A stretch of DNA of 54,722 nucleotides, filler included, from Piptocephalis cylindrospora (lineage: Eukaryota), in assembly GCA_003614145.1 (NCBI GenBank). It is 3 parts of 3 records of this genome, joined end to end, with 100 filler letters (N's around TTAATTAATTAA, not from the genome) between each part and the next. Parts side by side here need not be neighbours in the genome. Positions count along the whole stretch, not along the records: positions 36,590 to 54,722 come from KZ987843.1; 2 more parts are not named here. The stretch is one strand, 5' to 3'. The position numbers were made by a program, and so were the translations under genes. Below, piece by piece: positions 18,205 to 54,722 of this stretch. The notes below the pieces were generated by a model. The model worked only from the letters and a program-made list of their open reading frames with translations. It was not told the DNA's origin and did not search any database. The stretch's first letter is position 1; every line of letters starts with the position of its first letter.

Positions 18205-18304
18205 NNNNNNNNNNNNNNNNNNNNNNNNNNNNNNNNNNNNNNNNNNNNTTAATTAATTAANNNNNNNNNNNNNNNNNNNNNNNNNNNNNNNNNNNNNNNN
18301 NNNN
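18205..18304. other. Artificial contig-joining spacer
   Basis: N44-TTAATTAATTAA-N44, which gives stops in all six frames. Confidence 0.97.
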
Positions 18305-30581: not shown

Positions 30582-33500
30582 ATGAGTTCCCAGCGTACCC
30601 CACGCGTGGTCTGGTCACCCCGTCCCGGGTTGCAGCAGTTTCTCGTTGGAGCCTCAGATCTCCGCTTGTTCGAATGGATCCCCGGGGTAAGCCGATCCAA
30701 GTGCTTTGTGCTTCCTTCGTCCATGTAGACTGATTAATACCCTCGTGGTCTAACGTGCATACATATGACAGGCCACCGATGACCAGGCCCAATTTCCCAT
30801 GGTAGCCGTCAATTCCGACGTGCCCCTAATGAAGGTACGCGTCAGCCATCCTATTGTAGTGTTTTCCTCGAGAATACTACAAAGTCTCCACCCATCGGGC
30901 TCTTTAGATAATCTCTTAACTCACAAATCTTTTGTGCTCAACTGCCTCCGTAGTGCTTCGCATGGTCTCCAGACCCACAAGTTAGTGACCTGGTGGCAGT
31001 GGGCCAAACGAATGGAAGGACGCGTCTCGTTCGCCTCCATGCCATTTCCACTCTTAGTCAGGGCCAAGGGAATGGGCAAGTAGGCTCGCAGCCCACATCA
31101 GGGGTAGTGACCCCCTCTGCCCCCGTAGCACTTTCTCCGGGCGGAGGAATGAGCTCTCATAGTCTCATGTATCCTGAACTTCCGGTCAGAAATGCCCGTG
31201 CATGCAATGTCGTTGCATTTTCCGATTCCAATCCCAATCTCCTGGCTTGCGGACTTGATAAGGTCAGGACAGATTACTCAGTTAATATCTGGGACATTGA
31301 AATGGCCCGGGAAAGGGCGGCCGATGTCATTGCCTCCACCTCCACCGTCTCCAATCCGACCCATGTGATCCCCTCCAGCAGTTCCAATTCATCCACAGTA
31401 CGCGATTCAGACTCATCAGGTCATGGACGTTCCTCGAAAACAGGATTTCACGGACACTCTGGCCCTCCAATTGCCCCATCCACTCAGGCTCTACAGGCCA
31501 TCGCGGATGAGCTGCGGCCCTTGCGGCAATTCGGCATGTCCGAGGCAGTGACTTCGGCCGTGTGGATTCCGGCTAGTCCCCATAAGCTCCTGGCTGGTAT
31601 GGGGATGAAAACGGTGCGATTGTATGATATCCGCGCTGGAGAGTCTTCCAATTCCAATTCCTCTTCTGCATCCTCCAGCTCCTCATCCAATTCAAGCCCC
31701 ATCAGCATCTCCACAAAGGCAGTCTACGGGATAGCGCCAGATCCCTTCCATGAGCATCGATTTGCCTCCTATCAGGAGGATGGTGTAGTTCGGATCTGGG
31801 ATTTGAGGAAACCCGTTGATCCTGTCTTATCCCTGCACGTGGCTGCCGCTCCGGGATCTTCTTCATTCTCTTCATCTTCGTCCACCTCTCACTCGAGTAT
31901 CCTGCCTTCTTCCTCGGGTGGAAAGTCCCAACCTATTGATGTGATTTCCTGGAGTCCAAGGGTTACGGGACTTTTGGCGACACATCAGAGAGATGCTATG
32001 AGTGTTCGGCTCTGGGAGATGCAGGAGGGGACAACGCAAATACCCATCCCTACGACTGGCCAAGGGGACCGTATAGGGAAGCCCACATCGGGAACACCCA
32101 CGGGGTCCACAGGAACAGCAGGGCACGGGAATCCTTTTTTCCCCGGATTCATGGGTACCAACTCTAATAGCCCAGGGGAGGCCAAATTCGGGTTTTCCGG
32201 CTTCTTTGGAGGTGGTGGGGGCGGGGGTGGCGGGGGGAATACGACGGCCAAGGAAATTGAATCTGAATCATATACGGATATCCCCGTATTATGGAGGACG
32301 AGACAGACGAAACCTTCGGTCCGTCTCATCTCCTCCTTTGCATGGATCCCAACAGAATCTTCCAGTGGAACTGGGCGTCTCGTCCTTGCCGCCAGGGATG
32401 GGACAGTGGATGCAGTGACCATCCGAGATGCCGCACGTTTGGCCTGGGCGCCTAGCGGTAGCTTGATCGTCCTTGGTGACCGTGGAGTTGCCCACAAATA
32501 CGGGCCGCTTGAGGGGATAGAATCAAGTGGAGGCGGGGGAGGAACCGGTGGGGGGGATGTCCAAGGACATTCGGGGGCCGAAGGTGGAGGAGGGAATGCG
32601 ACCGCAGATTTCCATACTCCTCAATATGGTAACCATACTATTTATGGTAGTAGGAGGGCTTCACATGGTCTGGCGGGTCTGGAGGAACGCCTGGAGGTAC
32701 TAGAGCGAAGCGGTCGGATCCTCGGGACAGGCCCTCGTGGCCAAGGCCAGCGCGGTTCTGGTCGTGGTGCCGGTACCGCTGGCGGAGGAGGCAGCATGGC
32801 CACGGAAAGGAATCGAGTTAGCATGGAGCTGTGTAACGACATCAGCGTAGTGATGCGCCGTCGTGCGCAGGAGGGCTATAATATGAACGCCGAGGAAAAC
32901 ACCAAGCTCCTCAAGGATACTTCCTTATGTGAAGTGTGGGCCTGGTTAGCACGTAAGTGTTTTTAGAAGAATGGTAGGGGGGGATAAGTCTTTCATCCCT
33001 CAACTTAATAACCTCTCTCCATAAAATTTTCAATGATGGAGTAGAGGAGGAAAAGCTAGCTGAGGTGGGAAGGATCCAGTTGGGTGGAGTGAATTTTAGT
33101 CATCAAGGCATTCATCACGTCCTCTTGGGAACACGAGGTATGTTTGAAGACAATTGGACCTTTCAGCATTTATCCTCATCTCCTCTTTTCGATCATTCTA
33201 TTAGCAACTGGAAAGCGAAGATCAGCTAATCCTTCGGCTCAAGGATCGCCAATACCCCAGGCATCATATGGACCCGATGTAGGCTTGGGGAGGCCAAGCA
33301 CTCCTGGGGTCATCTTGGAGATGCAAGGAAGACACGTTCCCTCCCCTGCTCCTACAGAGATGACAGGAGCGGCAATGGGCATGGCCGGGGGAGGAGGAGA
33401 GTGGGTTTTTACCTCCACGCACCGGATGGAGCAACGTCGTTTGGCTCTGCAAATTTGTGGATGGAGTAACAGCGCCAGTGTTCTTGAAGGTGTCCTGCAG

Positions 33501-35234
33501 ACCATGGAGGCCAAGGGCGAGTGGGATAAGGCGGCGGGCTGGGCCATTTTCCATGGTCGGCTCCAAAGGGCCATTGAGGCCTTAACCAATAGCAAGGATG
33601 AAAAATTAACACTGGTATCTGTTGCCTTAGCGGGTTGGGCATCCCGGGAAGGATCCAACCTATTTCCCACTGCCTCAGCTGCATCCACTACACCCTCGAC
33701 TTCCACTTCCCCATATACAGCGGCGGGAGGTGGAGTAAATGAAGGGTATCCAGGGTTTGGCCAGGGGTCCATGGCCTCTCGGGTAGCTAGCCCAGCCTCC
33801 ATGAACCCTAACGCTCCGACATCCGCCCCGATCTCCCCCTCAGCAAGTAACCCCCAGGATACGTCTCCTCAATCGGGAGTCTGGCGGCACTTGTGCAGGA
33901 ACTTGAGCGCAGATCTGCATGGTCCGTACCTTCGGGCCATTTTTGCCTATATAGGCTCGGGAGACTGGTCGGCCGTCCTGAAGCTGGATGACCTTTCCCT
34001 TCGGGATCGTCTTGGTATTGCTCTTCGCTTCCTCGGGGATGATGAACTCTTCCGCTACATCCACGACCTTGCGGATCATGCGGTACGACAGGGGCAAATT
34101 GAAGGGATTCTCCTAACAGGTCTGACCCCTAGGGGCATCGATCTTCTGGGGGCATATGTTGACCGGACAGGTGATATTCAAACGGCGTGTCTGGTAGTGA
34201 GTCAAACGGAGACCCGTCGATTCCGAGATCACCGAGTAGATGAGTGGATCGACAGCTACCGCCGTTTGCTGGATCGATGGAGGATGTATCAGCATCGTGC
34301 TCTCTTGGACATTGCCCGAGGGAAGCGGCAAAGATCAGCGGGAACAGGGGGAGCAGGGAACACTGGAACGGGAGATAGGGCACAAGCTCCGGGGATGGGT
34401 GGAGCCCAAGGCAAGATCCCACGAGGGTCCTCGCTTTCCCATCACTCACCCTCTCCAGTCCCGCCTTCCTCCACCCCCGCCCCGACATCCATTTCTTCCT
34501 TGGTTGGGAGGAAAGGTGAGATGCATGGAATGGGAGCCGAAGAAGATACTGTGGCGCCCCAGGTTTATGTCCGATGCAATTTTTGTCAGCAAAGCATTGC
34601 CCACTCCCTTATGTACACCAGTGTTCGTGGGGGTCATGGGCCTGGGGGTCACGGGGGTGGGGGACACCATGGGGGAGGGCCGGGTGGGGGACCGGGTGTT
34701 GGCGGAGGGGGTAGATTGACCCTTTCCACCACTAGTGTCACCCCAACCGGACACTCTTCCTCCTCCCCCATATCCACGGCCAGTACCACATCTTCCTTCC
34801 CGGGGTGAAATGGCCCAGGTATGGGTGGGGGAGGTGGGGTATTTGGCGGAGGAATGGAGCTGGCTGGATCTCTCTCTCAGTATGGATCAGCGGGCGCTCG
34901 GCTCAAATCGACCTGCTGCCCCAATTGCCGCAACCCCCTTCCACGGTGCGCTCTATGCCTCATGCACATGGGGACCCCATTGGACTCAGGCCGTTCCAGA
35001 TCTTTTGCTAATCCCGAGTATGATCGTACGTATATCTCTTTGACGGCAATTCACTCTTTCTCCCTTCATTCACGTTGCACCTTTTTCTCTGTAGATTACC
35101 CCTCAGGATTCGAAATGTGGTTTACATGGTGTCAGACGTGTCGACATGGGGGTCACGCAGCACATGTTCTCCAATGGTTTCAGGAACATGTACAGTGCCC
35201 CGTGGCTGGGTGTGGATGCGAGTGTTCTTTGTAA
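30582..35234 (+). CDS. MIOS: GATOR2/SEACAT subunit MIOS (Sea4): WD40, helical solenoid and C-terminal zinc fingers; in-frame TGA at 34806-34808
   Basis: Six exons (introns 30687-30771, 30835-30953, 32953-33044, 33138-33204, 35026-35094). Motifs AVGQTNGR, RNARACN, LLACGLDKVRTD, STKAVYG, DISVVMRRRAQEGY, GPYLRAIF, GILLTGLT, YVDRTGDIQTA, CPNCRNPLPRCALCL, WFTWCQTCRHGGH...CPVAGCGCEC. Confidence 0.93.
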
Positions 35235-35897
35235 CTGATCAAGGGTTCCGAACCGGATGAGATGAGATGGAGCTAAATAAGAAAGGAATGGGGCGGCGTT
35301 GGATTTTACCTTGAGATTTCAAAAACACTGTGCAGTTGATGCGTTGATGGGAGGGGAGGCAGAGTGATGATTCTACTTTGTTTTATATACTCTATTGTGA
35401 CAGCGTACATAGGCTGCTTCATGCACGTTGGCTTATCAGGATAAAAAGTCAGTCCCACATCCATCCTCCAAGGGTTCCAAGATCCAGCCGTCTAAGCTGG
35501 TCACGTGTGCAAGTGGGAGCGGGTAGGGGGGTCTGAACCAGTCCCTTGTCATCAAGGCAGCCCCGCCCCCACTGTGGAATCGCGTCTGCTGTGGTGTAGG
35601 ACTTGAGTACTAGGGTCATCGGGGGTACAGCACCTGCGGCAGTGCAGATAGACAGCAACCTTCTTGACCTTTTTTTAAGCATATATATCGTTGCTAAGGT
35701 GGATTTACTGGGCCTTTCCTCCTTTGCTTCCCCCTTTAAATCATCCTCATTCTAGTAGTGCCCCTTCCATCCCGCTCCCTCCCTATCTTTCGCATTACCA
35801 GAAAGAGTGTGTACATTGATCCCAGTCGCTTTTGCCCTCCTCGTCTCCTCCTACTTCTCCTCAGCTCAAGGTTGACGACGAGAGCAGTGACACCGAC

Positions 35898-36489
35898 ATG
35901 CCTCAGAAACACACATTTAAAGTGGTTCTCATCGGCGATGGCGGGGTAGGAAAGACGTCTTTGCGTAACCAATACATCCATAATCGGTTTGCAGCAACTT
36001 ATAAAGCGACGATCGGGGCCGACTTTCTGTCTGCCGAAGTGGAAGGAGCGGACGGCCGAAGGGTCCTACTGCAGGTATGGGACACAGCGGGTCAAGAGCG
36101 ATTTGCGTCCCTTGGCAAAGCATTTTACCGGGGAGCCGATGCTTGCATCCTGGTTTACTCGGTAGCATCCTACGCGTCCTTTGCATCGCTCGACCGATGG
36201 AGACGGGATTTTCTGTGTCATGCATCTCCGGCTGATCCAGCGGCATTTCCCTTCATCATTGTCGGAAATAAGTCAGATCTGGGGGAGGAAAGGGTGGTGA
36301 CGCGTCGACAAGCCCAGGACTGGGCATTACGAACTCATCGAGACTTGGATGAGTGGGATAAGCAGGGCGTCGAGGTCATGCCCTGCCTCGAAGCCAGTGC
36401 AAAGGAGGGTATGGGAGTAGCGGACGTGTTTTCCGCTTTGCTCTCCGAGACATCAATGTGTGTACTATTGAGTGTCGTCCACACGTCCG
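35898..36489 (+). CDS. Rab7-like small GTPase (divergent), 3'-truncated by contig end
   Basis: KVVLIGDGGVGKTSL, YKATIGADF, WDTAGQERFASLGKAFYRGAD, FPFIIVGNKSD, EASAK. Confidence 0.88.
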
Positions 36490-36589
36490 NNNNNNNNNNN
36501 NNNNNNNNNNNNNNNNNNNNNNNNNNNNNNNNNTTAATTAATTAANNNNNNNNNNNNNNNNNNNNNNNNNNNNNNNNNNNNNNNNNNNN
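36490..36589. other. Artificial contig-joining spacer
   Basis: N44-TTAATTAATTAA-N44, identical in design to 18205-18304. Confidence 0.97.
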
Positions 36590-37599
36590 AGGATCCACAG
36601 GTGGACTCTGAGCGGGTCGACGAACTGGGGGGGGGAGTGGTGGGGAGACCCATGGGAGGGTAGAAAAGGGTGGGGGTGGGGAAAGAGGAAAAAAGGGAAG
36701 ATGGGAAGGAAGAGGATGGAGAAAGGATGAATGATGGTATGGGGGGAGGGAAGAAGAGGAAGGGGAGGTATGGGGGGAGTATGGAGAAGTATGGGGGAAT
36801 ATGCTAGGGATGGAGGATAAATGGATGATTGAAGGGGTGGGGGAAAAGAGGAGTGGGAAGAAGAAAGATGGGTAGAAAGTAATAGTATTTATGAAAGATC
36901 ATGATAAATGCAAGGGAGATATCCTGGATAGGATTGAGAGGGAGGAGTGGCCATGATGATGTTCTTTCAAGCTCTGTAGAGGAGGGATGGAAGGCTAACA
37001 TTATCGTTGCATTCATGACCATCTTCCTCCCTCCTGTGGACCCTATTATACTTTCCGCTAACTTCTTCCTTACACTCCCCCATGCCCTTTCCTTAGTCAC
37101 TTGGTGCTGGCATTATTTGATTCGTATGCTCTCATATAGTCATCTTTGATTTTGGGCACGCCTTTCGTAACTGAGGACTACAGCTAAGTCTAATACTGAA
37201 TTCATATGAATTTGGGTTGTCCATTTTTCATGGACATTCAGTCTCGCTACTAGGGATGCACAAGCAGATGTGGGGTCTCCCCCATCTTTGTGTCCCCCAT
37301 TTACCTTGCCCTATCTTCTCAGCCTGGCATGGCTGAATGATGATTCCAGTACCATTTGGCATAACGTATTGTGGTGTGTGTTGTTTCTACACTGGCACTA
37401 CGACAATTTGTGTGGTATAAAAAGTGTGTGTCTAAAAAATATTCAATGTAATAAAGGCCCCTTTCTCTCTCTCTCTCACTACTATGGGACGCGTTTGACG
37501 ATATCGGATCGCGGACATTATTTGTGATAACTATCGCGATCTCAGTTGATGGGATCAAAGCTAGCGTTCTAGGTGTCACCCTCTTTGCCATCTTCCTCA

Positions 37600-38818
37600 A
37601 TGCCAGCCACTCGCCCCGAACCCCTTACGCAGTCTTATTCCCATTATTCTTCTATTCCGGAGAAGACGATGGAGGATGAAGGATGGATCCTTGGCGTGGA
37701 TGAGGCAGGTCGTGGTCCTGTGCTTGGGCCAATGGTCTATGGGGTTTGTTATTGCCCGAAGGGCAAACAAGAGGAGTTGAAGGATTTAGGTTTTGCAGGT
37801 ATGTTTGGCCCATGCATCCCTGTTGCGCACTTCTAAACTCTCCTTGTTTGGTGTTGGTAGATTCCAAGACCCTGGATAAAGGGGAGAGGGATTCTGGATT
37901 AGGCCGAGTGATTGGAGCCAAGGACTGGCTGGGCTGGGCAGTCAAGGTGCTTTCTCCTCAAGATATTTCTAGTGGGATGCTGCGGTCCTCAGTCAAGTAT
38001 AATCTAAATCAGCAAGCCTTGGATGCCACTGTCCAGCTCGTTAAGGGCGTCATTGATCTTGGCATCCCACTTACTGAGGTAATGCCTTTATGGATGAGGT
38101 CGGGGATTGTGTATTGGGTTATCCAGAAGCGCGCTGGCATTGACCGTTGGCTTTCACCTTCTCCCCAGTAGCTCTACGTTGATACTGTAGGTCAACCCAA
38201 TGCCTATCAAGCCAGCTTGGCCACCAGGCTTCCCCGGAATCTCAAGATCACTGTGACCAAAAAGGCGGACTCTCTTTTCCCTATTGTATCGGCCGCCTCC
38301 ATTTGCGCGAAGGTGACACGGGACACTATCATGGAGAAGTGGATGTTTGCGGAGGTGGGACTTGGCCCTGATGTGGTGGGCAAGGCTCTTGGCTCCGGGT
38401 ATCCTAGTGGTATGTGCCATCCTATCCCTCTCTTTTCCTTGCTGCATGTCTTATCCTCGTATATTTGATAGACCCGAAAACTGTTCAATGGCTGAAAAGG
38501 TCAGTCGAACCCATTTTTGGCTTCCCAGGAATCTGCCGTTTCTCCTGGGGGACCTGTGAGCGTTTACTAGACGAATTTGGCAAGGCAATTCGATGGTATG
38601 TTGCGGTTAAAAATAGGCGAAAGGCGGTACAGAAAAATGAATAATCAAGGTACCCATTTTTTAGGGAATGCGAGGATATTGAGGAGGCAAGGGCGAGACA
38701 AAAGCCGGGAAAACGATCCAGGGTAGATAGAGCCTTCCAGTCCACCTCCCAGTATCTTCTACCTGGACCTGGCGTCAGTAAGAGACTGGGATTGGAGTCT
38801 ATGAGGGATTTTGAATAA
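37600..38818 (+). CDS. RNH201: Ribonuclease H2 catalytic subunit A
   Basis: Five exons (37600-37798, 37861-38078, 38172-38409, 38472-38595, 38665-38818). Motifs [72 protein letters not shown]. Start codon uncertain. Confidence 0.95.
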
Positions 38819-39083
38819 GCTGGTAGGTACCTTTATTCTATTGGACGTGTAGGACTGATAACAAGATGTTCAATGTAATATGCTCATTCTACATTAGCAT
38901 TGACTCTAGAAATTGTATCGCATGGAGCTTGGAGGAAAATTGAATGAGAAGGGGCAATAAATTATTATAGCATGCTCGTTTCACTGGTATATGAAAACTT
39001 TCTGTATGCATGTCTTTTATTAATCATCAGGGGGACCTACACAGCAAAACGCTTCCCTTTACTTCATCTAAATATTGAGAGGA

Positions 39084-42000
39084 TCAATCCAGGCGAAAAT
39101 CAGCCCTGAGGGGGATGGCCTTGGATGGGGCGTTTCTCGACCCTCCGGACCCCATGCGGGTGGATATCGATGCGGACGTGACAGCTTGCCGCATTACCCT
39201 CTCCATCTCTTGTTTCCTATCAATCTTTTGGAATACTACCTTGAATGCCTCTGGCTGAAGCGATGCCAGGCGGAGAAGATGCTTCCCAAGGACCATTTCC
39301 GTCTCATGTGGAACTCTTTCCAAAAGACTTGACCCTAAAGAGAGAATGATCATGATGTGACTAGCCACTAAGGATACGATGAGGAAGGAAGGAGTGGTGG
39401 TGAGTAGCTGTATTGCCTCGCCTTTTGTTCAAAGCCCTTAAATCTTCTAGAGACTTACCAGCAGATTGTTCTGAGAAAAGGCCAATGACAGAGATGCTCG
39501 AGGAGAGAATCACGTCCCATTCCTCCATACCCATGGATGGAGGCTTCATCTCTTCCACTTTTTCCTGAATTCCTCTCGATGCTATGCACCACATCAAGCC
39601 TAACAATCCGCCCGTCCTTTCCATTCTTCCCATTTCCGAACCAAATCGATCTTCCATCATCAGCATAGTTTGTAAGGCTCTTAAAGGCAAAAGAACCTTT
39701 CGTAGAACGAGTGAATAGCAATGATTAGCTATCAATGGGAGTCAGAAAATCCCAAAGCATACATCCCTTCTTACCTGCTTCTGCTCAAAGGATCGATTGA
39801 GCCGAAATTGTATCCTTCCCAGGAATTTAGACCATTCAGCCGTTAGGCCCCACGACGAGGATGCCTGAAGGCACCAGGAATGGACGAGAGCATAGAAAGA
39901 GCTCATAGCCTCGTGTCCATCTCCTGCTTCCATCCCCTTCTTTTCCTCATCAATTAAGCATGACAGGCAAACAGGGGCCAGTCGGGGTATGTCTGCTCCT
40001 ACAAGCCTGGCCAGCTGTCTCAGAATTTCAGAAGAGAGGGTTAGGTGGGAGGCCCGGTAAATAAGTCTCACTAGCAGACCGACCACTCCAGCTTGCACTC
40101 TAGAGCCTCCCTGATGGATCATCCTATCCACCAATATTCGGACACCTAGCCGGATCCCTGTAACTCCCTTGATCTTAGGAGGCCCCGGCTTACGAATCTG
40201 CCCTTGCCCTACCATGTCGCCCATGACTCCTGGGGGTAATCCCCAGGCCATGGCATGAAGTACCAACCTTAGACGGGCCTCCTCATCTCCTTCTTTCTCC
40301 TGTTCCTGATCCATCTCATCGGATACCCAGATGGATCGCACAATACCAAAGACCTCCTCCACAATTCGTGCACCCTTGGAGGAAATATTTGGTCCTGGTA
40401 GGGTTAGGACCGTTCTATCCAGCAGTCCGATCAGCTCCCTCTTCACCGCCCTAATCTCCTTTTTCTTCACTCCCTCCAGACCTTCGGGGGAGGCATACAC
40501 TCTGGAAATGGAGCTAAGGAGAAGGAGTTGCAAGGAATAATCTAGACGATCTAGCCCTTCCACTAAGACCATACCCATTAGACCAATAAATAAAGATCTC
40601 GAGGCTGTAGGCATGGTAGGAAGGGAGGAGGCAGCTGCTAGGAGCTCTATCCATCCTTTACCCCTAACCCCTCCCTCCAGGGCCGAACCACCCCCTCCTT
40701 CATAGACGGACCTTCCCCAGGAATTACGGACCCCAGAAGAGACGCCTATCCAAGCCTGACCAGAGTCTCTACCCGGGATGACACTGGATGTTCTGGTCGC
40801 GAAACCCCCGTTGGGGAAGCTTTGAGACTTGGGAGTCCCAGGACTATCCAATCGAGATCCTCTTCTGGATCCATTTCCTTCACCTCCCCCACTTCCCACC
40901 CCCCCACTCTCCTCTTCTTCCTCTTCCTCCTCAACTCCCAGCCGAAATTTTCCATATTCTTCCAAAGACCGAACCCATAAGGGACCTAGGGTTGCCAACC
41001 GAGGCTCGAGTACCGAGCCTAAGAATGGTCTGCCATATATATGCTCCTTTCTATCTTCATCATCTTCCTCCTCTTCCTCATCCTCCGCCTCGATAACCGT
41101 CAGGGCCCGGGCATCTAATCCCTTATATAGGATGTAAAGCCTTGCCCAGCCTTGAAGGACCGATACTTTGAGGAGGAGGGAAGCAGGAGCGCTTTCTGCT
41201 CCTATAATTTCAACAACGGATGGTTCACCTTTTTGCGACTTCCCTTCCGTTCCTTTTCCTTCCTCAAGTTTCTCACCTTCCTCCCCCATTCCATCTTGCT
41301 CCTCTTCGTCATCGTCAGCTTGATCAAGTCTAGCGATGGCTGTCAAAGCATCATCTAATAGGCGCAAAACTCTACCCATCTTCCTAGTTTCCTTGACGAT
41401 TCCAGCTCCAATGTACTGAGCAGCCACCTGGACAGCCAAGGCCACCACTCGAACATCCTCCTCTCCAGCCTTGGCTCTCTCCCCCAAAGAGGCGGATTTG
41501 TCCTTGGAAAGTGCTGGGGTAATGGCAGCTGTGATCTGAGCCTGGTATTGGGCAAGTAGAGGCGTCCCATGCCTTTTTCGCTTTTGGAAACTGCTCGTGC
41601 CTACCTCTCCATCTTCCTCCTCATCTTCTAGATCATTGGCCGCTCGTGGCTCGTGCACTTCCTCTTCCTCCTCGTCGTCGTCCATCAGACCTTCTGGGTC
41701 AATGGCCTCTGCAAAATGAGTCAGAATGCTTCTTAGTAGCAGCAGGCCTTCTCGACGCACTCGCGAATCCCCGGTAGTGGCGGCACCAAGGGAGGTGCGA
41801 ATTAGATCTCCCACATGGGTAACAATCTTGTTAGGAGAGGACTTGGCCAAAAGTGGGTCCATATGGGAGGTGATGGACCCTTTGGTGGTTCCAGCTGTGG
41901 CAGCCTCCTCTACCAACCAGCGCATTACCCTAAGGGCCAGCCACTGACTGGGCCCACGTACAGGACCCGTAAGGTAAAGACCTAGGGCGGATGGAGCCAC

Positions 42001-45000
42001 TCGCTCCTCCTTCCCGGGCCCCGATTCAGAGTCTTCTTCTCCTTCCTCCTCCTCTCTCTCCTCCTCCAAAGGTACTTCGTTATTTGACCCAGCCCCTGAC
42101 CAGATGCCCCGGGCAAGAAGAACATCTACACATCGTTTTACCCACTCAGCCGTGTCCTCCCTCAGGGCTCGGCCCTCTTCGATAAATCCCTTGAGTAATG
42201 TACCGCAGCCAACTCTACTTCCCACGACTCGGTCTTCCTCTTCCCAGTCCGTCATGGCCAAGAGAAGGGTAATCCATTCGTCCTTAAATCCCCCGGCCTC
42301 CCATACTCCTTGCAGATCTCGGCGAACTAATTGACCCAAGCATCCAAGGACCACTCTTCTCGTCTCTGATGCCCCCGGTCCCTCCCCCCAGTAGGGTGGA
42401 ACAAGGGGAAGTAGAGCATGTAGTCGACTGGCTAATCCTCTTACTTCCACGTGGCCAGGAGCAAAGATGACACAGTGCTCCAAACAACGAATACCTCTTG
42501 CTGTTAGATGAATCCATAGACTTCGTCTTACCACTGATCTATCCGACGCTGTATCAGCAAATTTCATCAAACATAAAAAGGGGAGAGGTGAGTGTGAATC
42601 ATGGGATGCTTCATCGTATCCCCTTTTTCATCCGACCTATAAACACTTACACATCGATTGTCTTAGGCCCATCCTCCATAGTTCATTCGCGAGGAGAGTG
42701 CATGTTTTTAGAAGACTCCCTCCATGGGATAGGTCGGGACCCATGATTTCTATAATGGCTTCTAGAACTCGTCCAGCACCTTGCCCAAGACCCTCTTCAT
42801 CCATGCCCTCACCATCTAGAGGCAGTGAATGAGAGAGAGCATGGACTACTACACCCAAAATACCCTTGCACCAGGTGGAGGAAGATGACACAGAAGCGGA
42901 GTAACTGGACCCGGAGCCACGCACTACGCTAGCAAGAGCAGCGAGGGCAGATGTGGAAACAGATCGATGAGGATCACGACCCAGGGCTTCCAAGACCCGT
43001 AGGACTGAGCGCGCTGATTCAGGACCTAGCATTCCTCCACACATCCCTCCGACAATTCTAGTCATCCCAGCTCGATCGGAGGGTTCCCGTACCTGGACAA
43101 GCCGATCTACCCCCGCTTGTAAAATCCCTGTAACGAGGGCCGCGCCCGGATCGGGTCCAGAAGAGGTGGAGGTAACGAGGCTGGAAGAAAGGACCGCCAA
43201 GTCTCCAGCTACCTGACTCACCAACCCACGCATCCCTTCCCATCTCCAGACGCCGGGAGTATCCACAGAGGCCAGCAGGGGAGGGGTAAGGCCAAGTAAG
43301 CCGTAAGCCAGGCCGATGCCCGTAGGGCCCATCCAAGCCTTGGCTTGACTAGTTCTTCTAGAGGCTCCCTTAGTCAATGGGCGCAGCAAGGCCAGTGTAC
43401 TACCCTGCAGAGATAGACGATGAATGGAGTGAGGACCTAGACGAGAGGAACTTAAGGCTGTGGTCAGCTGATGCAAAACCTTTTCCGTCAGTGTCATCCT
43501 AGACCCATGCCCGATGGGTTCCGTCGACTAAGAAAATAAATGAGGAAAATAAACGGGTTAATTGAGCTTGAATCAGGAACTTGACAGAAGTCACGCTCAC
43601 CTTTCCAGGACTCGGATAGAGTAGCGGCAAGAGGGAGCCAAGAAAGATGATAGCTCCGTCTACAGCTTGGTATCCGGCGGAAAGGGAGGCTGTCGTGGAA
43701 CCAGTACATCCCCCTAAAACCCCCATCCAGCCTGGGGACCAGGTGACTGATCTCTTGAGGATGGGTTGCCACTCAGGGTCCATATCCGACCAAACGCTGG
43801 AAGCCATGCCAGCGTGTGCCGCCATGGTCAAAGTAACGTGCCCGGCCCAAACTCCCGTCTCCCCCTTTCCTTCACTCTCCTCCTCACCTCTATCGGCCCC
43901 CACACCGCTGTTTAATCCCTCAGCATGGATCACTGTATCCAAGCTGGCCCTCACTACGGTTTGTACCCAGGGTTGGGTCCCACCTCGCTCCTCGAGTCGT
44001 AATATTCCCCGGGATACCCGATCCCCAAGACCTACTAGAGCACCATAACACTCGAGTAATAAGGCCTTGATACGTCCTTTGGTTCGATTCCCATCACCTT
44101 CCCCTTCTCCGGCCAAGGCAGCCCAGGAGTTGTGGAGTAGAGAAAGAATTCTTCTTCCTACCTCAATGCCTACCAAGGAACCTGAGGATCGGAGAACTTC
44201 GCGAATGGCACCCAAGGCAAGAATACGTCCCTCCAGGTCATCTGGCTTTCCTTCCTCCCCTCGAGCATGGTCAGCTGGAGGGCGGGAGGGGCGGGGAAGA
44301 GCATCCTTACACAGGAGGAGTAAGGGGGTAAGATGAGGCTGAAGTCTTCGTGGACCTGTGCGAGCCAGGGCACCCACAAGCAACCATCCAGCCTCCCGAT
44401 GTCCACGATGATGCGAAGAGCGCAATAGTTGATGTACCAGGGCAAAGACCCATGCATCCCCTCCTTCTCCGACCACCAAAGGGTGCGCTGGGCCCTCGGT
44501 CACCAGAACTGCCAAACCCGCAGCAGTACCTCGTATCCGACGCAGTTCCATGGCCGTGCCACTCGTGCTGGTTAGATGGCCCTGAAGGTGCTTATGTAAA
44601 CCTTGCGTCAGGGGCGGCAAGAGGTTTGGAGAGGCCCGAACCACGCTTACAAGAGTAGTGCATGCTGCAGCCTGGACACTCCAACGGGGATGTTTTAAAA
44701 GGAGATTCTCGACACTGGAGGCAAGGGCCACTGGTGTCGATACGGTTGTAGCTCCCTTTGCGACCGTTCCCCCAGAGGGAGGGTGAATGAGTGCAGAGCT
44801 AAGTCCTGAACCAGTCATGCTTCCTATCCCCCCCTCCTCCCTCTAGCAGGTCGGAGCACGCGGCTAGAATAACACGGAGGGTCCTGGGCCCAGGGGCTCT
44901 CTCGCCCGGAAGTATGGCAGGCCACGCCCTGAGCCATGAGCGGATCAGTTCATGCAGACCGTCCGAGCGGGATGTCGCATCCGGAAGCCATTGACGACCA

Positions 45001-46412
45001 ATACGGAGGAACAAACGGGTAATTCCCACCTCAATATACAAGGCCGCACCCTTTCCCTCGGCTTCAGCCTCGATTAAATCGGCCTCAGATCCCTCTCCCT
45101 CCTTTTCCACAGAATCATATGATCGTAGAACCTCATCCAGGATATGTCTTACTATCTGACCATAATGTCGGGCGGTCCATGTTCCACCTAGCCTCCCACA
45201 CATCTCTCCATAGGCTTGGAGAAGAAGGGAGGACGAACGTCGACGCCTCTCACGGATCTCACCATAAGTATTCCCCGCCTCATTATGAAGCTTTTTTAAG
45301 GGAACAGAAAGCTGCTTGAGCATCTCGTCCAGTGAAAGAGCTCTTAAGTCCTTATCCTCGGTACGAGTCTGGCTTCCCCCTCCACCGCCCTGAGGATCAC
45401 TGCCTACAAAGGGGCGATGAGCAAGAGAAAGTAATGTACCAAGAGTTCCAGCCAAGCGAGCCCCGGCATCTTGCACCTCCCGAATAGTATCTCCTGGAAC
45501 TGGTGGAGCCTCAATGGCTCTAATTAAGGCTTGAATCAGGGGAAGCGCTATGGATCGACGAAAGGGATGACCAAATCGGGTGTGCACCAAAACTAGTTCT
45601 AAGCACTGGATATAAATAGAATAATGAGTTGGAATGGCGCCAGAGATCACATAATCTACATGGAGATGAGTCATACTAGAGCAGCTTGGTTTTGGACGAC
45701 GGCAACGAGGTATCGGTGGGGACTCATTTCGGCCTTGAGAAATTTGACAAGGTCTGCAGCCTCCTTCTCTGATAGACTACGGCCAGCTCCACGAACGATA
45801 ACTCCTATTCCATCCAAAATTTCCACACGTACCGCCGGTTCCTAAAGAAAGACAGTGATAATGAAGAGACCATGAGGCTATTATAAAGGAAGAGCGGGAC
45901 TCCTTACATGAAGCATATAATCTTACGCGTGGGTGTGCCTTGAGACACTTAAGCATCACTTGAAGCATCTCCCCAGCTAAATAGCCTACTGACCGGCTAA
46001 AACGACCAACGAGAACGGATATGCAGTGTATGGCAGCCAGTGAGGCCTCCATAGGCCCTTGGTCCGCAGCGGCTTTTCCTGTGGCCAAGAGGGATGCCAA
46101 GGCATTAAGTACTTCTGCTAGCATTCCTCCCACATGTCCCTTGGCTCGGGAGTAAAGAACGAGGTAGCATCGGGCTACTCGATCCCGGATCAGACGCGTG
46201 GGTCTTGGCTGAGAACTGCATACGAGGCGTAAAAGTTCTCGTTCCAATCCACCCCTTGCCACCTCCAGGACCGGCACAGGGCAACGCATAGCCTCCTCCT
46301 CCAGTCGGGATAACCATTGAATGACGTAGAGTTCTTGATTCTCCGTGGAATCGCCAACCCCAGCAAACCCTTGCTCATCCCACTTGAATGCTGAGGGGAT
46401 TTGAAGGTCCAT
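39084..46412 (-). CDS. HEATR5/Laa1-family HEAT-repeat AP-1 accessory protein; apparent frameshift at a G7 run (44828-44834)
   Basis: N-terminal ELYVIQWLSRLE...PTRLIRDRVARCY. Internal REAGWLLVGAL, VLEALGRDPH, IIEIMGPDL and LLAQYQAQITAAITPA. C-terminal IPLRADF*. Several GT-AG introns. Confidence 0.8.
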
Positions 46413-47576
46413 AAATGGAGGTTAGCAAGGCTGAAAGGACAGGAGAGATAAGGACTAACTGGAAAAGGGGGGATGACGAGATGTGCAAAGAGGGAGGTTT
46501 AAAGGGAAAGGTCAAAGGAATAAAGCGTGAGCACTTGTATCAAGAGATGGATCCAAAGATGTGAAGAAGGATATTGAATGGGGAGCACACCTTGAAACGG
46601 GGACGTGGCAGACTGGCTCTACCCTCTATGCTCACACGTCCGCTCGGTTACTCAGTGATGAGAGCGTCGGACATGAAAATCCGTGTGCAAAGTTGGAATT
46701 ACGGTACAGATTGCTCTCTTTGCATGGTGATTGACCATGAGTGGCCTGTAGATGCGGAGGCGATGGTGCAGTGATTGTAATACCTGTAGTCCTCACCGAT
46801 CATCTCCTGCACTTTTGCTAAGTACTGGCTCTGGTTCCTAGACTTGGCGCTATACTTGCTCCTGCACCCCTTCATAGAGTATCCCTTGGCCTATATATTC
46901 ATAGGGCAAAACATTACTCAGTGAGACAGAAAAGGATAGTTTATAGGTATCCTAGGACGACAGTCATGTAATATGACCCAGATTTGATGACTGTATTGCT
47001 AATAGTAAGAGCAATGGTATTACCATCCATTTAGGCGAGTGATGCATTCGAATATCCATCAGTCTGCCCGCGATCCTGGGGGATAATCAAGTAAATGATG
47101 GTGATCCCAGGACAAGGCTGAATATCCCGTTGCCGGGGGACGATAGCATACTCAGTCGCGTTCCGAGCTACCCTGATCGGGCTCTGAGGCCTTCCCGGTG
47201 GCGAATGTTCCTTTGGATGACGGTGGGTAGGGTGCTTCTGTAGTATCCAAATGTTCACTCTGTCGGGTACACGTCGGAAGCATGCTCCCGGTACCATGTA
47301 GGCCTAAATCTAAATGCCTATCCCATCGGGGAAATAAAATGAGTTTGTCATCATCCATCAGCCTGTCCCACTAAGGGAAGGCAAAGTGAGTCTATTATAA
47401 TCTGTCTCGTTTAGCAGATAGAGCACATTTTGCGTCAGATGTAATATAATGAATATACTACTACGGTAGAAATGGGAGATATATATTCTCTCTTTCCCAA
47501 GTCCACTCTGATACTACTATTATTCTCGTCCATTAATTCATCCTTTACGGCAATAAAAATAACCATCCAACGGATT

Positions 47577-50500
47577 CTACTCCTCATCTTCATCTGCCGG
47601 TCTTGACCAAATTCTACGGATGGTCAAAACCATTTGCTCCACAGGACAGCAGTGCTGCATCATGGGATGCTATCAAGGATAGATAATCAAGGAATCAGTA
47701 TCATAGGCTATCTACACCTTTCTCTTCCCTTCCCCTTTCTCTAGGATCACTTACAATCAAGAGGTCGTCAGCATGGGGTCGACGGTCCTTCTTGAGGCAT
47801 TCAGAAATAAAATGGCACCATTCCTCCGACCATTCATCCCCAGAGAGAGTGGCCGAGGGGGAAGTAGCAATGGCATATAGGGCTTGAAGAGGGGCTAATC
47901 CCATGTACGGAGGGGCTCCTTGGGACATCTCAATGCATACCACACCTAAAGACCAGATATCGACTCTGACGTCATAGGGCTGGGCTAGAATGACCTCAGG
48001 GGCCATCCAGTAAGGTGTGCCCACAATAGAAGTCCTACGCTCTGCTCTGGAGGTCAATTGTACAGCCCTACCAAAGTCGGCTGGTAAATAAAGAATGAGA
48101 TAATAGAGGTACGGATATTAGTGTAAGAGCGTCAAAAAGCAATATTCCTCGCAGCCACCCATTCTCATTGAAATCAACAAACGATCTCCTTACCCAACTT
48201 GACTTCCCCACGAGAACTAAGGAGGATGTTGTCGCTCTTGACGTCCCGATGGATCCTTTCATGCTCGTGAAGGTACTGAAGGGCCTTGAGGACCTCCTTG
48301 GCCACTCTGGCCATCTCTGCCTCTTGTAGACGATATGCTGGGTCGTCGCAAATAAGATCAGTCAGAGCTCCGGCATCCATGTACTCCATGAGGATCTGTT
48401 GACAATAAAGGAAAGTGAGGATTAGGGCGCTCCAGACATGCCTCGTTCACCATTACTTAAAAAAAACTTCAACTTTACCACTTACCCAAACTTCCTCCAA
48501 AGAATCTTCCTCGTCGCTCTCGGTCCCATCTTCATCCTCGTAATGGTAAGCCCCAAAAAACCGGACAATATTCTTATCCAAGCTAGCCTTCATCAAACCT
48601 AACTCATTGGATAGGATGCCCATTTTTTCCGTCGCGCTAACCGATACAACCTTGCAGGCCACCTAATGGAATAAAAGAACCAATGGGAGGAGAGAATAAT
48701 AGGGGGAATCAGATACCGTTAGAGTGAGCGTGTCCATACTTCCCTATAGCACTGCCTCGTCTCCTTAGTCCACGGGCTTTTCTAGCTACCAAATGCACTT
48801 ACCAATGATTCTGTACCCTTGTACTTGCCAGCCAGAACATCACCAGAAAGACCTTCGGCCACCTGAATGATTTCCGAGACTAGCTCCCTTGGATCCTTTT
48901 CCTCCACCCATTCCCTCAAACCATACTCATCCAGTGGGTGGGGCCCGTCCTGTTGTCCCTCTTCTTCCTTTTTATCCCCATGATCTGAGTCAGAGCGCTC
49001 CTCCGCCAATTCTTGTAACTGCGTTAAATCCACTAGCTGACTCTTCCTCACACGAGAGGCTCCCTTTTGCTGGACAGACGTCATCCCCTCGTCCTCAACT
49101 CCTCCATTCAATGACACTTGATCTGCCTGATTTTCCTGGACCATTTCCTCTTCCAGAAGCTTCCTGGCTTCAGCAGCCTGGCTCTGGGAGACTCGGATAG
49201 ACGTGCGCTTCCGCCGATCCTTCTTCCCCACCTCTGCCATAGACTCTTCCTGCTCCTCAGACTTCTCCTTCAAGTTCACGTCTTGTTTCCATGAGGTAGA
49301 CCGCGGAGCCGGAGCTGGAGAAGGGATTGGAGGATGTGAAGCGAGAGCAGGTGGGCCTCCACCGGCAAAAGAGCTTTGGGTCCTTCGATGCCCTTTCTGG
49401 GCTAAGGGACTAGAAGGCTGGTGCAGCTGGAAAGTAGGCCGAGCCATCAGTCCAGGGGAGGCTGACCCATCTACTCGGACCACTTCGCCTACTCGAATTT
49501 CCACATCTCCCACTGATCCTTGAATCAGTGGTCCTACGGAGGATGAGCGAGCTGGAACATCCGTCACCACGCTATGAGAACTTGATCCACGAGGAGGGGG
49601 AGTAGCCATAATTCTCGACGGGATTGAGGTGGTGCCTAGAGCAGTGGGGATTTTCCTCACGGAGGGAGAGAGCGCGTATTGAGAAGAAGGAAGGCTTCTT
49701 ATTGGAACCGGAGACGAAGTGGCAATCTCCGGTCCTTCCTCCTTTCCAGATGTATTCAAAGCAATCGGGATCTCCTTGGTCGTGACTGGGGCCTGGATGG
49801 GCAGAAAAGGCACCTTTTCCTTTGGCACAAGGGCATTTTTTCCCATTTGCCCACCATCCACATGTACACTTGCTCTACTCATGGAGGCTTTGCCCTTTTG
49901 CGAAAGGACAAAAGATCGATGCTTCCGGACCATTTGCTCGGTAGATTCTTCTTTTTCCTGGGAGGCGTCGTCCAAGGTAGCTGCTTTCCAATTGGGGTTT
50001 CCATCCATTTCCCTTCCTTCCTTGCTTTCCTGCACTTGCCTTGACTCGTCCTCCTCTTTCGCATCTAGCCTTCTCGTATCGTCTTTGACGGTCTCATCCA
50101 CGTTTACTGTCATATTTTCCTCCACAATTTTATCTTCCTCCATTTCCTCTTCCTCCTCGGCAAAAATCATTCCAGATCGGCGCAAAAAGGACCTCATCCC
50201 CCGAGCACCACATGATTTCTTCAGTAAGGGATGCTCTAAAAGTGTGGAGGCCGAGGGCCGCTCCTCTGCCTTATAGCGTGTGCAATCCTTGAGAAAGCTT
50301 ATAAGGTCCGTGCTAAGTCTCTCATTCTGCTCAGCGTCCTTATCCTCCTTAATTTCCTCGTCAGGCATACCTCCGGTAGCAAGGAGGTAGAGAGCCTTTA
50401 GGGGAGGGTAATCAATGTAAGGAGGCTGGCCATGCATCATTTCGTAGATCACAACGCCCAAAGACCAGATATCCACTTTGGGCCCATACCACTCGCCCTT

Positions 50501-53500
50501 TACCACTTCGGGAGCCATCCAGTAAGGGGTGCCCACGACAGCATTCCTAGTAGGCTTCGTTTCGGTCAGCTGACTGCAATGGACAAAGTCAGCTAGCTTG
50601 ACTTGACCTCGGGAGTTGAGGAGGATGTTATCAGATTTGACATCCCGATGCACACGCCTCCCGGTATGTAAGGCCTCCAGAGCTTTACTAATCGATAGGG
50701 CTACATATGCCATTTCAGATTCTCCTAGGAAAATAGCATCTCCTCTAACTTTCTCTCCATCCTCTTCCTCCTCGCCTAGCATGAGAACATCGGCCAGGGA
50801 TCCAGCGTCCATGTACTCCATGACGATCCATAAGGATTGGGGAGAGGGGTCCAGATAGCAACCGAGGAATTCGACAATGTAGGGCCGACATGCTGGGTCA
50901 TCCGTGGAGGCCTGCATCATGGCCACTTCGTTTCCGATGACCTCCATCTTCCCTTCAGCATCCCAGGGCACTATTTTGATAGCCACTTCCTTACCCGTTT
51001 CCTCAGCAGCATCCCCCTTCCACACGTCCCCACTATCTCCTTCGGCTACCTTAATTCGGTGGGGAAAGAGGGCGTCGAGGTCCCCGGACCTCTTGACCAT
51101 ATTCACTAGACCATACTGCTGCAGTTCACAAGTATTAAGAAAGATGAATTCAGGTTCCAGTTCAAGATCGGACTCGGCCCCATGCCCCGTAGGAAACACG
51201 TGGTTAGGCTCGGCGTGGGGCTTGACGGTTAAGGGAGAGGTGACAGGCAGGGGTGGAAGGGAAGGTACGGCGGAAGAGTCGGTGTCCGCAGAATGGTTGG
51301 AGAGGACGGTGGAGGCGCGTGTCGACACGCGAGTAGATCGACGTCTGGATATGCGATGGTTTGATGAAGCGGTTGAGGCACTGCTGCGTCTCCTCCCAAC
51401 CTTTTCCTCCGCCTGACATTCATCCTCTCCAAGGATCTCGGAGCCCTTGGAAGCCTTTCTCGATGAAGGGCCTGTCCTTCCAGGAGTGTACATACTGGCC
51501 CTGGCCAGAGCTCGCTTCTTCCTCCCTCCCTCCTCGTCCTCGTCCTCCAAGCTCCTCTGAGGAGAGATGTAACTTTGATGTCGATGCTTACTCATAATTC
51601 TGGCTAAAGTATCCTCATTCTTGGCCATCTCGTCCTCTTCCAGACCCACTTGATCCTTAGCCAGACCCTTCCAATTTTCGGGAAGTTCGGCATCAGTGGG
51701 CTTCCGTGTATTGGGATGGGGCAAGGAGGAAATGACTTCACGGGCTCCATTTGCTTCCGTTGACTCATCTTCTCGTGTCCTCTCGGTGCCCTCTTCTTCT
51801 CCTTCCTCTTGGTTGGCTACAGTACGGATCACTTCCACGAGCTCCTCCTTAGAGCAGGCACAACGCAGGAAGGGATGCTTTAGGAGGTCATGGGAATTGG
51901 CCCGGCCCGTGGGGTTCATTTGGGTGGAGAGACGAAGGAAGTCACGGAAATCCTTGCTCCAGGCCTCAGGATCAGTCAATTGGGGCGGACCATACGTGGC
52001 AATCATAAAGATTGCCCTGAGGGGAGGATAATCTAGATAGGGCGGAGTCCCCTCGGACATCTCAATGAGAACAATGCCCAAGGACCAAATATCAATCGCT
52101 GTCCCGTAATTTTGACCATTTACCACCTCTGGTGCCATCCAGTAGGGGGTACCAACTACGGAAGATCGATAATCCCTTTCTTGGTTCAGGGCAGCACAAT
52201 GAGCAAAATCAGCTAGAAAGGATGGGAGAGTGAGATACAGGATGAGTCAAAAGCCTTTTCCATCCTAAAATTAGTGAGAAGACGACCCAATCAAAATCAC
52301 CCACCTAGCTTAACATCTCCTTGAGAGTTGAGGAGAATGTTATCTGACTTGATATCCCGATGGATCATCCTCCGAGCATGGAGCCATACCACGGCATTCA
52401 GCACCTCGAGGGTCACTTTAGCGATATGACGCTCGGTAAGATGGTGGGAGGCAGGATCTCCAGATTGGGGAAGAAGATCAGTTAGAGCGCCAAAGTCCAT
52501 CCACTCCATTATCATCCAAATACATGGACCCTCCTGTTCCTCCTCTTCTTCCTTCTTTGGTTCCTTCCCTTCTCCCTCCTCTTCCTCCTCATTTTCAAGG
52601 AAGTACCGGCCGTTCTCCACAAAATGGCCACCAACCCACTGAACAATATTGGGATGAGGAAGGCATTGCCGCATCGTTGAAAATTCATTCCCGAGAACCT
52701 CGAGTTTAGCCTTGCACTGCAGGGGAATGACCTTGATGGCATGGGTGACCTCCACGATGGATCCTTTGGTAACAGCAGAGTAGACACACCCGTTCTCTCC
52801 ATGGGCAATCATGGTCAAGGGCTCATACTTATCCTGGATCCCAGAGTCCATGCCCACCCCTCCCTCCAATTCAATACTGTACCGTTCCAGGGTTCCTTTG
52901 ATCCCTTGAGTGCCCGATATGTCCAGGGCTAAGGAAGGCAAAGGGGGTACGGGAGGGAGAGGAGGCATGGCGGGGTATCCTTCCCCCAAATCTTCCGTTC
53001 CCACTCGATCCTCCCGGTCCTCAAAAGCAAGAGAGCTTGCATAGATAGAAGCTCTAGAGGATTTTCTTCGGTGCTGAAGGACACTTTGTCTTGATACCGT
53101 AGATGACCTTCTCTTCCCCGTCTTTCCCAAAGATACCCCACCACTTGATTGGGGCCGAGGGGCTTCTTGACCTTCCCCGCCTATTCTACCCTCTCCACTC
53201 CCGCTTTCCTCTGCCCCCGATCCTTGAGCATACCGGTGGTGTCGGTGGACACTCATGAGCCTCTCGACCGTCTTGGCATTCTGCCGAAGTTGGTCCTTGG
53301 GAATACCCGCCTCTTGGATCATCTCCTGAAGATCTTTGGCCAAGGTCTCGGCAGGAGCCTTCACCACCTCAAGGGTCTTTTGTTTTGGGGGAATCGGAGC
53401 CATGGGGAGCATTTGGCGGACGCGCATCTCTCGAATGAGCTCCTCCTTGAGGCATGCCCCACGTAGAAAGGGATGTTCCAGGAGGGCGAGGGCGCTGGGT

Positions 53501-54722
53501 CGACTCTTGACCTCTGCCATTGTCGAACATCTGACATAATCCTTGAAATTATCCGACCAGACTCCTTCCTTGAGCTCCGGAGACGGATTGGTAGCAATGA
53601 GGAAAAGAGCCTAGAAGAAGGGTATTTTTAAAGGAGGATATGAGTGAAATAGGAAAATTAAGGAACCATATTTTTTTTTCCTTCTCCCTGTCTCTCCTTT
53701 CCTTTCTCCCTCCTTCATCCTCCACTCTGTGAATACATACCCGAAGGGGAGGATATTTGAGATAAGGAGGGAAACCCTCGGCTAGCTCAAAAGCCACAAT
53801 GCCAAGGGACCAAATATCCACCCTGGTGCCATAGTGCATGCCCTTGGCCACTTCGGGGGCCATCCAGTAGGGGGTTCCGACGACGGAATTCCTGGTCCAG
53901 GAGGATTGCTCCTCCAATTGGGCGCAGTGGCCAAAGTCGGCGAGCTTGACGTCGCCCTTGGAATTAAGGAGAATGTTATCACTCTTGATGTCCCGGTGGA
54001 CTCGGTGGGAGGAGTGTAGCCAAGCCACGGCCCTTCCCACCTCCCTCAAAACATGAGCAATGATGTCTTCGGACAGAGGACCAAACCTAAGCTCTTCAGT
54101 TTGCTCATCCCCGCCGATGAGATCAGTCAAGGGGCCTGCATCCATATACTCCATGGCTACCCAGATGGACTCGTGATCAGCCAGACACCGGCGTAGCCCG
54201 ACAATGTTACCATGGGCGCTGGCTCGCATGAGGGAAACCTCATTAGCAAGAATATCCATCTTCTCTTCGGCGTCAAAGGGAACAATCTTGATGGCCACAG
54301 TGATAGGGCTGGCGGCGGAAGATTGAGAGCGCATCTTGGCCGTAAAGACATCCCCACTCTCCCCCTCGGCAATCTGCTTTCTCGGACCAAATAGCCGAGT
54401 AGGATCCCCCTCCTGGACACACTCGGTCAGGGAGTGCTGTTCAAGGACAGCCTGAGAAATATGGCCTTGGAGCTTGGGTCGTTTAGATGTTACCGTGGAA
54501 GCCCTAATTGCTCGCTCAGAGATTTTCTTATCCATTTGGTCTGCAGGTGGGTCTCCCCTCACATCAGAGACGGCTGGAGGCACAGGAATGGAGCGGGATT
54601 GATCGGGATAAGAGGAGGAAGAGGAGGGCGGGAAGTTGCTGGTATTGGCCGAGGAGGTAGTGGAGGAGGCGGACAGAGGAGGCGGGGAAGGAATGGTGTT
54701 AATAGGGGGCCTGGCTCCAGGG
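47577..54722 (-). CDS. Tandem four-domain STE20/PAK-like Ser/Thr kinase, 5'-partial, at least 2,164 aa
   Basis: Exons >54721-53741, 53610-52305, 52212-48803, 48662-48486, 48395-48194, 48080-47755 and 47669-47577. All are bounded by GT-AG and splice in frame (6,495 nt). Four domains (about 54390-53464, 52827-51866, 51066-50222, 48880-47658) each carry HRD[IV]KSDNILL and GTPYWMAPEV. Confidence 0.88.

Follow-up and report, generated by a model that had tools for sequence, protein, structure and literature searches.

A gene predicted to encode four PAK-type kinase domains in the mycoparasitic fungus Piptocephalis cylindrospora

p21-activated kinases (PAKs) are GTPase effectors with a single kinase domain, and they act in the control of actin and polarity. 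Here we describe a locus of Piptocephalis cylindrospora (GenBank assembly GCA_003614145.1) whose spliced reading frame contains four such domains, designated K1-K4. It lies on the minus strand at 54721-47577 of the analyzed stretch of DNA (54,722 nt, composed of three joined parts with filler; hereafter the window). We read the locus as one frame of at least 2,164 amino acids (aa) with four PAK domains, translated into one protein that arose by an old internal duplication and serves as an in-cis signalling relay, and we assign to this reading as a whole a probability of roughly 55%. That a single four-domain protein is translated can be proposed with high confidence.

Group I PAKs (PAK1-3), Ste20 and Cla4 resemble K1-K4 in sequence and fold, and PAK1 is described as having a three-helix inhibitory switch (PMC3490965), but these proteins contain one kinase domain, a GQG loop and a Thr phosphosite, and they form a separate clade. 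Closer are single-kinase PAKs with an AEG Gly-loop (e.g. ORX85642.1 and KAL1924520.1, database models only), which share the clade, the Gly-loop and the switch located after the GTPase-binding CRIB motif. They have one kinase domain, mostly a CRIB (a tandem pair where inspected) and Arg at position HRD+2, whereas the P. cylindrospora frame has four kinases, CRIB-less switches and Lys. Plant tandem kinases (WTK1/Yr15, RPG1) and dual kinases (JAK, RSK, GCN2 and those of Dictyostelium) also originated by duplication, with one copy drifting toward a regulatory role in the systems covered by the sources (PMC8761531, PMC1420674), but they have two domains, rarely three (PMC5878832), represent other kinase families and carry no PAK switch. 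Plant tandem kinases are defined by two RLK/Pelle domains; the domains found here are PAK-type, and the architecture alone is analogous.

The first-pass annotation of this DNA was not aware of any four-domain PAK described before. The literature searched, which leaves out most subscription papers, contained no account of a fungal PAK with four domains; four-kinase models as such, however, are not unique. The top match of the representative search, a PAK3-like RefSeq model of the bird Pipra filicauda (XP_039238671.1), shows a likeness to our frame, being 2,027 aa long with four kinase domains that carry HRDIKSDN, but it is of independent origin inside the PAK1-3 clade, its copies are 73-85% identical and it has no switch. 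Birds are reported to have PAK3L genes in ampliconic arrays (PMC13477013), so several genes may have been merged in this model. Four kinase matches per predicted chain also occur in oomycete (OQS05006.1, OQR99834.1, OQR85635.1) and Mastigamoeba models, which differ in their non-PAK catalytic loops and weak similarity, and are predictions only. In its architecture the locus is a PAK of a new form; it does not amount to a novel type of system.

Reading frame, kinase domains and family placement

Removal of six GT-AG introns, as proposed in the first-pass annotation, yields one frame of exactly 2,164 aa that is still open where the window ends and closes with a TAG stop codon (47579-47577). The end of the window, whose last N-free stretch spans 36590-54722 (18,133 nt), is very likely a contig end of the assembly, with the gene cut at its 5′ side. 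Exon 1 (53741..54721), open at the contig end, encodes a Pro/Ser-rich leader and most of K1; translation would start at Met aa 63 or further upstream. Intron 1 (53611..53740, 130 nt) is predicted inside K1. Exon 2 (52305..53610) comprises the end of K1, linker 1-2 and the N-lobe of K2 in a single frame, and intron 2 (52213..52304, 92 nt, phase 1) falls in the Ala codon preceding the DF of K2. Exon 3 (48803..52212, 3,410 nt) encodes the K2 C-lobe, linker 2-3, the whole of K3, linker 3-4 and the start of K4, within which predicted introns 3-6 are all located (48802-48663, 48485-48396, 48193-48081 and 47754-47670). The last exon (47577..47669) specifies an acidic tail, similar to the end of stored protein P0197, and the stop codon. 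The six introns are 85-140 nt long, have a G+C content of 0.38-0.46, below that of the exons, and each contains a branch-like site; intron 2 in K2 and intron 5 in K4 occupy an identical position.

The three interdomain junctions all fall within exons 2 and 3, in agreement with the earlier claim that they do not depend on splicing. In-frame stops in the linkers had been named as a finding that would speak against the fusion: none was present across 213, 269 and 450 codons, compared with 5-26 in the other frames, and base-shuffled linkers were stop-free in 1, 0 and 0 cases per 20,000. The coding score of the linkers is positive in this frame only; judged by synonymous-codon preference alone, linkers 1-2 and 3-4 score weakly or negatively.

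Four complete PAK-type kinase domains were recovered where they had been placed previously. K1 (53464..54390; IAEGESGDV, VAIK, HRDIKSDN, DFG, activation-loop Ser; split by intron 1) is canonical and 86-88% identical to P0155. K2 (51866..52827; IAHGENGCV, HAIK, DFA, activation-loop Ser; split by intron 2) carries an acidic insert of ~25 aa (52596-52528). K3 (50222..51066; VAEGDSGDV) has a PAK fold, with DFV (50590) and Ala at the activation-loop phosphosite (50542), while K4 (47658..48880; VAEGLSGDV, VACK, DFG, activation-loop Ser) is split by introns 3-6. The domains share 40-50% pairwise identity, and each of the four possesses the AEG/AHG Gly-loop, beta3 Lys, alphaC Glu (NE), HRD[IV]KSDNILL, GTPYWMAPE and DIWSLG. 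The motifs listed in the first-pass annotation are thus retained, but the domains are not all canonical, given DFA in K2 and DFV with the Ala phosphosite in K3. Pfam Pkinase matched 5/6 exon-frame pieces (the missed piece, 69 aa of K4, is too short), and NCBIfam gave generic kinase matches only, below the cut-off. By sequence, the top PDB matches were PAK3 and PAK1 (E 3e-56). The K3 model aligned with PAK1 over 287 residues with a Z-score of 37.2 and a root-mean-square deviation of 1.9 Å (VIA comparison, kinase only, model residues 197-521).

The beta3 Lys, HRD Asp and DFG Asp are kept in all four domains, and only the DFG Gly (K2, K3) and the K3 phosphosite are changed. The classification of K2 and K3 as classical pseudokinases was rejected on the basis of these three retained residues. 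Judging by their residues, K1 and K4 look fully competent, and K2, with its DFA, odd Gly-loop and acidic insert, and K3, with DFV and without the phosphosite, look tuned down or altered in regulation.

Among 419 stored proteins, 65 combine an AxG loop with a PAK catalytic loop, and 54 of these are outside the Zoopagales-like set. All 54 contain one catalytic loop; a CRIB-like pattern is present in 44, DFG in 47, an activation-loop Ser in 53 and Arg at HRD+2 in 52. The Gly-loop common to K1-K4 had been considered unusual, and it is indeed shared by all four domains; it is not special to this gene, however, but marks a subfamily including these 54 single-kinase relatives, from Mucoromycota and Basidiobolus among others, and was rejected as a private feature of the fusion. 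A tree of K1-K4 with Ste20, Cla4, PAK and GCK sequences, suggested earlier as a check, supported membership of the PAK family. A quick tree of 67 rows was followed by a careful one of 32 (35 redundant or outgroup rows dropped; two chimeric models in neither), in which K1-K4 fall inside an AEG clade of 24/32 rows (100/98). This clade is separate from Ste20/Cla4/PAK1; it belongs to the PAK radiation and not with GCK/SLK. Orthology to Ste20, Cla4 or PAK1-3 was not recovered (separate clade, no GQG loop). The kinase and the switch are of PAK type; the frame departs from PAKs in having four domains rather than one. The intact proteins closest to K1-K4 combine a PBD with a kinase and come from Mucoromycota and Basidiobolus.

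The AxG-loop fungal PAK subfamily is a previously undescribed grouping, defined in this analysis. PAKs of Mucoromycota and Basidiobolus (P0035-P0068, P0317 etc.) have a tandem CRIB pair, the AEG Gly-loop and Arg at HRD+2, and are distinct from Ste20/Cla4; the literature searched yielded no description of a double-CRIB AEG-loop PAK subfamily.

Linkers, switch remnants and a possible relay in cis

Two of the linkers contain remnants of the inhibitory switch. A profile of post-CRIB segments from 27 single-kinase relatives, with 500 shuffles per segment, identified remnant 1 in linker 1-2 (53224..53328, aa 422-456; 22.8 bits, 0/500 shuffles), with no CRIB ahead, and remnant 2 in linker 2-3 (51554..51685, aa 939-982; 10.2 bits, 0/500 shuffles), which has three predicted helices and is conserved in P0161. 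Each remnant is followed by a basic RRxS cluster and a PxxP tract: those of linker 1-2 (52927..53115) are candidate phosphosites and a putative SH3 ligand, and the RRxS cluster of linker 2-3 (51332..51394) was recognized by sequence. The two linkers are homologous (27% identity, 182 columns, E 3e-12). Linker 3-4 (48869..50218, 450 aa) is acidic, Pro/Ser-rich and coding-like. The switch profile gave no match in the N-terminal 110 aa (100/500 shuffles), and the CRIB profile gave no convincing match in the window, the best being in linker 3-4 (-0.7 bits, 6/500 shuffles); Pfam PBD matched 0/4 linker segments.

MAFFT independently placed remnant 2 onto PAK switches of fungi, amoebae and animals. 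In an AlphaFold model based on a 76-row alignment (predicted template modelling score 0.74) it forms three helices, with predicted local distance difference test scores (pLDDT) of 80-94 over model residues 11-50, and the linker is mostly predicted disordered (pLDDT <50 over most of residues 65-185). In the account of PAK1 consulted, the switch consists of three helices packed between alphaEF and alphaG, precedes the kinase-inhibitory tail and is unfolded alone (PMC3490965), so that confidently predicted helices in switch 2 are compatible with docking. We slightly favour the view that the remnants are still inhibitory.

The ancestor of the gene was probably a double-CRIB fungal PAK with the order CRIB-CRIB-switch-linker-kinase. 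If the part that starts with the switch was duplicated in tandem, the kinase-switch-linker-kinase order would have been produced with no internal CRIB, the duplicated unit comprising the inhibitory-switch helices, the basic/PxxP linker and the kinase. As a consequence, no GTPase could open the internal clamps, whose release would take phosphorylation or a conformational change of a neighbour. A Cdc42/Rac-binding CRIB would lie upstream, past the contig end. Once a GTPase was bound, K1 would be released and would phosphorylate, in cis, the activation-loop serines and the RRxS clusters; K2 and K3 would thereby be freed of their CRIB-less switch clamps and K4 would be turned on as the output kinase, with K2 and K3 serving as scaffolds or as modulators of low activity. 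The likely output would be actin/polarity control, because of the known biology of PAKs; Dictyostelium PAKA is one with reported cytoskeletal roles (PMC1420674). A relay or integrator role is a fair inference from the sequence, backed by the switch remnants in two linkers, and a strictly ordered relay is proposed only tentatively.

The main rival to the relay is parallel action. The same four-domain protein could work as a multivalent kinase or scaffold, through dose, avidity or different substrates, with the switches clamping the nearest domain or vestigial. Retention of Lys, Glu and HRD-K-N by all four domains would suit such a protein, as would the long linkers, predicted disordered, and the lack of a switch in linker 3-4. 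However, the DFG Gly and the phosphosite are lost in 3/3 K3 sequences, as opposed to a Ser in 53/54 single-kinase relatives, and the preservation of these K3-specific losses points to a division of labour. We consider parallel action rather unlikely.

Conservation, database models and assembly support

Piptocephalis, Syncephalis and Thamnocephalis are described as obligate mycoparasites forming one group (PMC6784888). The K2 and K3 marks recur in P. tieghemiana, in Thamnocephalis and in two metagenome fungi, one of which has kinase, switch and kinase within one open reading frame. In P. tieghemiana, KAI9226706.1 corresponds to K1 (86%) followed by the K2 C-lobe (89%), and KAI9226705.1, of adjoining accession and on a contig of equal length, presumably the same one, to K3 (74%). 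Thamnocephalis RKP06663.1 (58% like K1) neighbours RKP06664.1 (consecutive accessions, one contig), and the latter, with DFA, groups with the ENA sequence P0161 (93/94). P0161 comprises, in one open reading frame (ORF), a DFA kinase with a K2-like C-lobe (59%), a switch, a basic patch, a PxxP tract and the Gly-loop of the next kinase; its switch is closest to linker 2-3 (score 95, 0/1,000 shuffles), and its single-sequence fold was of low confidence (pLDDT 37.7). K3 groups with P0311 and P0168 (99/97), which share its DFV and activation-loop Ala, and K4 with P0197 (100/98), which has VACK, DFGR and an acidic end in common with it. P0168 and P0197 are both on a 6,052-nt Joint Genome Institute contig, presumably the same one. 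Amplification confined to Piptocephalis was rejected by a one-clade constraint (approximately unbiased test, p-AU 0.0013), which indicates that the duplications predate the genus. Two candidates from a metagenome DNA scan with a K3 motif (L001, L002) were discarded as chance matches, with no tblastn match to the four-kinase protein. The architecture is apparently conserved beyond the genus and is not private to the P. cylindrospora genome; that the four-kinase PAK is old and conserved in Zoopagales is probable.

The matches listed (33 of 1,199 candidates of 2,021-5,000 aa, 120 of 1,706 of 634-2,020 aa, and 150 in the representative search) include no AEG PAK model that is both full-length and multi-kinase. 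The P. cylindrospora model RKP14381.1 joins aa 63-213 to aa 726-903 of the frame across a false intron and is a K1/K2 chimera, which has hidden the four-kinase architecture; KAI9226706.1 contains the same error. Within 53291-51866 the false K1-K2 intron is set at different points in the two models, and the result is single kinases that do not exist.

These models bear on a further alternative, namely a tandem cluster of PAK paralogues with separate or shorter transcripts (through internal promoters, intronic polyadenylation or proteolysis), in which read-through is rare or confined to Piptocephalis. Every database model is a single-kinase piece and several orthologous ORFs start at the kinase, as such a cluster would predict. 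Against this, the splice of RKP14381.1 shows that the models are artefactual, no stop follows K1, K2 or K3, the linkers are coding-like, AATAAA and ATTAAA were absent when looked for across the gene, and P0161 has the fusion in another organism. We regard the cluster as improbable.

Misassembly across the linkers had been raised as a possible refutation, and contigs from two runs agree with the window. In run X1 (a possible source), 47000-54722 is found in one 14,953-nt contig, with one synonymous difference, which extends 1,919 nt beyond the window end; in run X2, 47000-50562 is contained in one contig with no difference, bridging linker 3-4. Runs X4-X6 (RNA by guess) cover ~160 nt of exon 2 with no intron crossed and are uninformative on expression; 11 further matching records lie beyond those listed. 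A collapsed repeat was ruled out by the 40-50% identity of the domains. An assembly or amplification chimera of unrelated kinase genes, for which inverted ends in some short contigs of runs X3-X6 might be cited (such ends are frequent in amplified DNA), is highly improbable and already largely refuted by three in-frame joins with homologous linkers, the intact X1 and X2 contigs, the same neighbours in P. tieghemiana and the same junction in P0161.

Several observations weigh against the reading of the locus as one protein with an in-cis relay. No spliced transcript or protein was seen, and the introns and the single mRNA are therefore predictions. The K1-K2 junction is bridged by X1 alone, and linker 2-3 is covered by X2 and X3 only piecewise. 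The window contains no CRIB or PH domain; the gene is truncated on its 5′ side where the contig stops, the upstream CRIB is assumed, and Met63 is a possible start. The match of the switch profile to linker 3-4 was not significant (209/500 shuffles gave an equal score), and the alignment behind the fold was rich in intact switches, came with no contact list and may bias the helices. A non-Gly DFx is also present in 7/54 single-kinase relatives, so DFA and DFV need not mean low activity. Direct fusion outside Piptocephalis was seen in P0161 only; in P0168, P0197 and RKP06664 nothing precedes the kinase, which would fit separate genes as well as truncation by the gene caller. For K2 orthology, which involves a long branch, a p-AU of 0.49 only fails to reject. 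Among the 120 matches listed, three Syncephalis species have one kinase model each, so the fusion may not be universal.

Neighbouring features and wider meaning

Downstream of the gene, 47215-47355 has short matches to several other contigs, some very deep, and may be a dispersed repeat; Rfam and tRNA searches of the downstream region gave no match. A SAM-dependent carboxyl methyltransferase is encoded at 4799-6082 (minus strand; Pfam Methyltransf_7, E 3.6e-15), a family known mainly from plants. The minus strand also contains a tandem pair of ceramidase-family genes (13404-14186 and 16001-16936), Sel1-like repeat frames in a run (25413-27407, one weak Pfam match) and, by eye, a Rab-like GTPase that runs into the N gap (35820-36545). 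A histidine kinase (3-4354, plus strand; HisKA, HATPase_c) has very long low-complexity inserts and, by eye, a receiver-like end. Genes for MIOS (30954-34808, plus strand), HEATR5/Laa1 (39742-46421, minus strand) and a JAB-domain protein (10428-13104, minus strand) were also distinguished. Each of the gaps at 18205-18304 and 36490-36589 consists of two 44-N runs flanking a 12-nt island. Among the stored proteins, the ENA sequences P0001, P0156 and P0417-P0419 (~2,910-2,960 aa) contain approximately nine kinase-like stretches with HRDVAARN in the last only, a multi-pseudokinase array.

With four diverged PAK domains, switch helices kept and the GTPase-binding motif dropped, the gene represents a natural experiment in rewired kinase regulation, in which cis and trans autoinhibition and activation are testable within one chain. 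A PAK subfamily of non-Dikarya fungi comes to light with it, as does a recurring error of annotation, the chimeric K1/K2 models in two genomes. In its widest form, which we consider doubtful, the proposal is of a Zoopagales-wide PAK cascade in one polypeptide, overlooked on account of gene models that fuse K1 with K2. A single Rho-GTPase input at K1 would pass in cis through the GTPase-uncoupled clamps and through K2 and K3, as two specialised regulatory kinases, to the output kinase K4, giving a switch-like polarity signal that might serve host attack or the formation of haustoria; a link to parasitism would be speculation.

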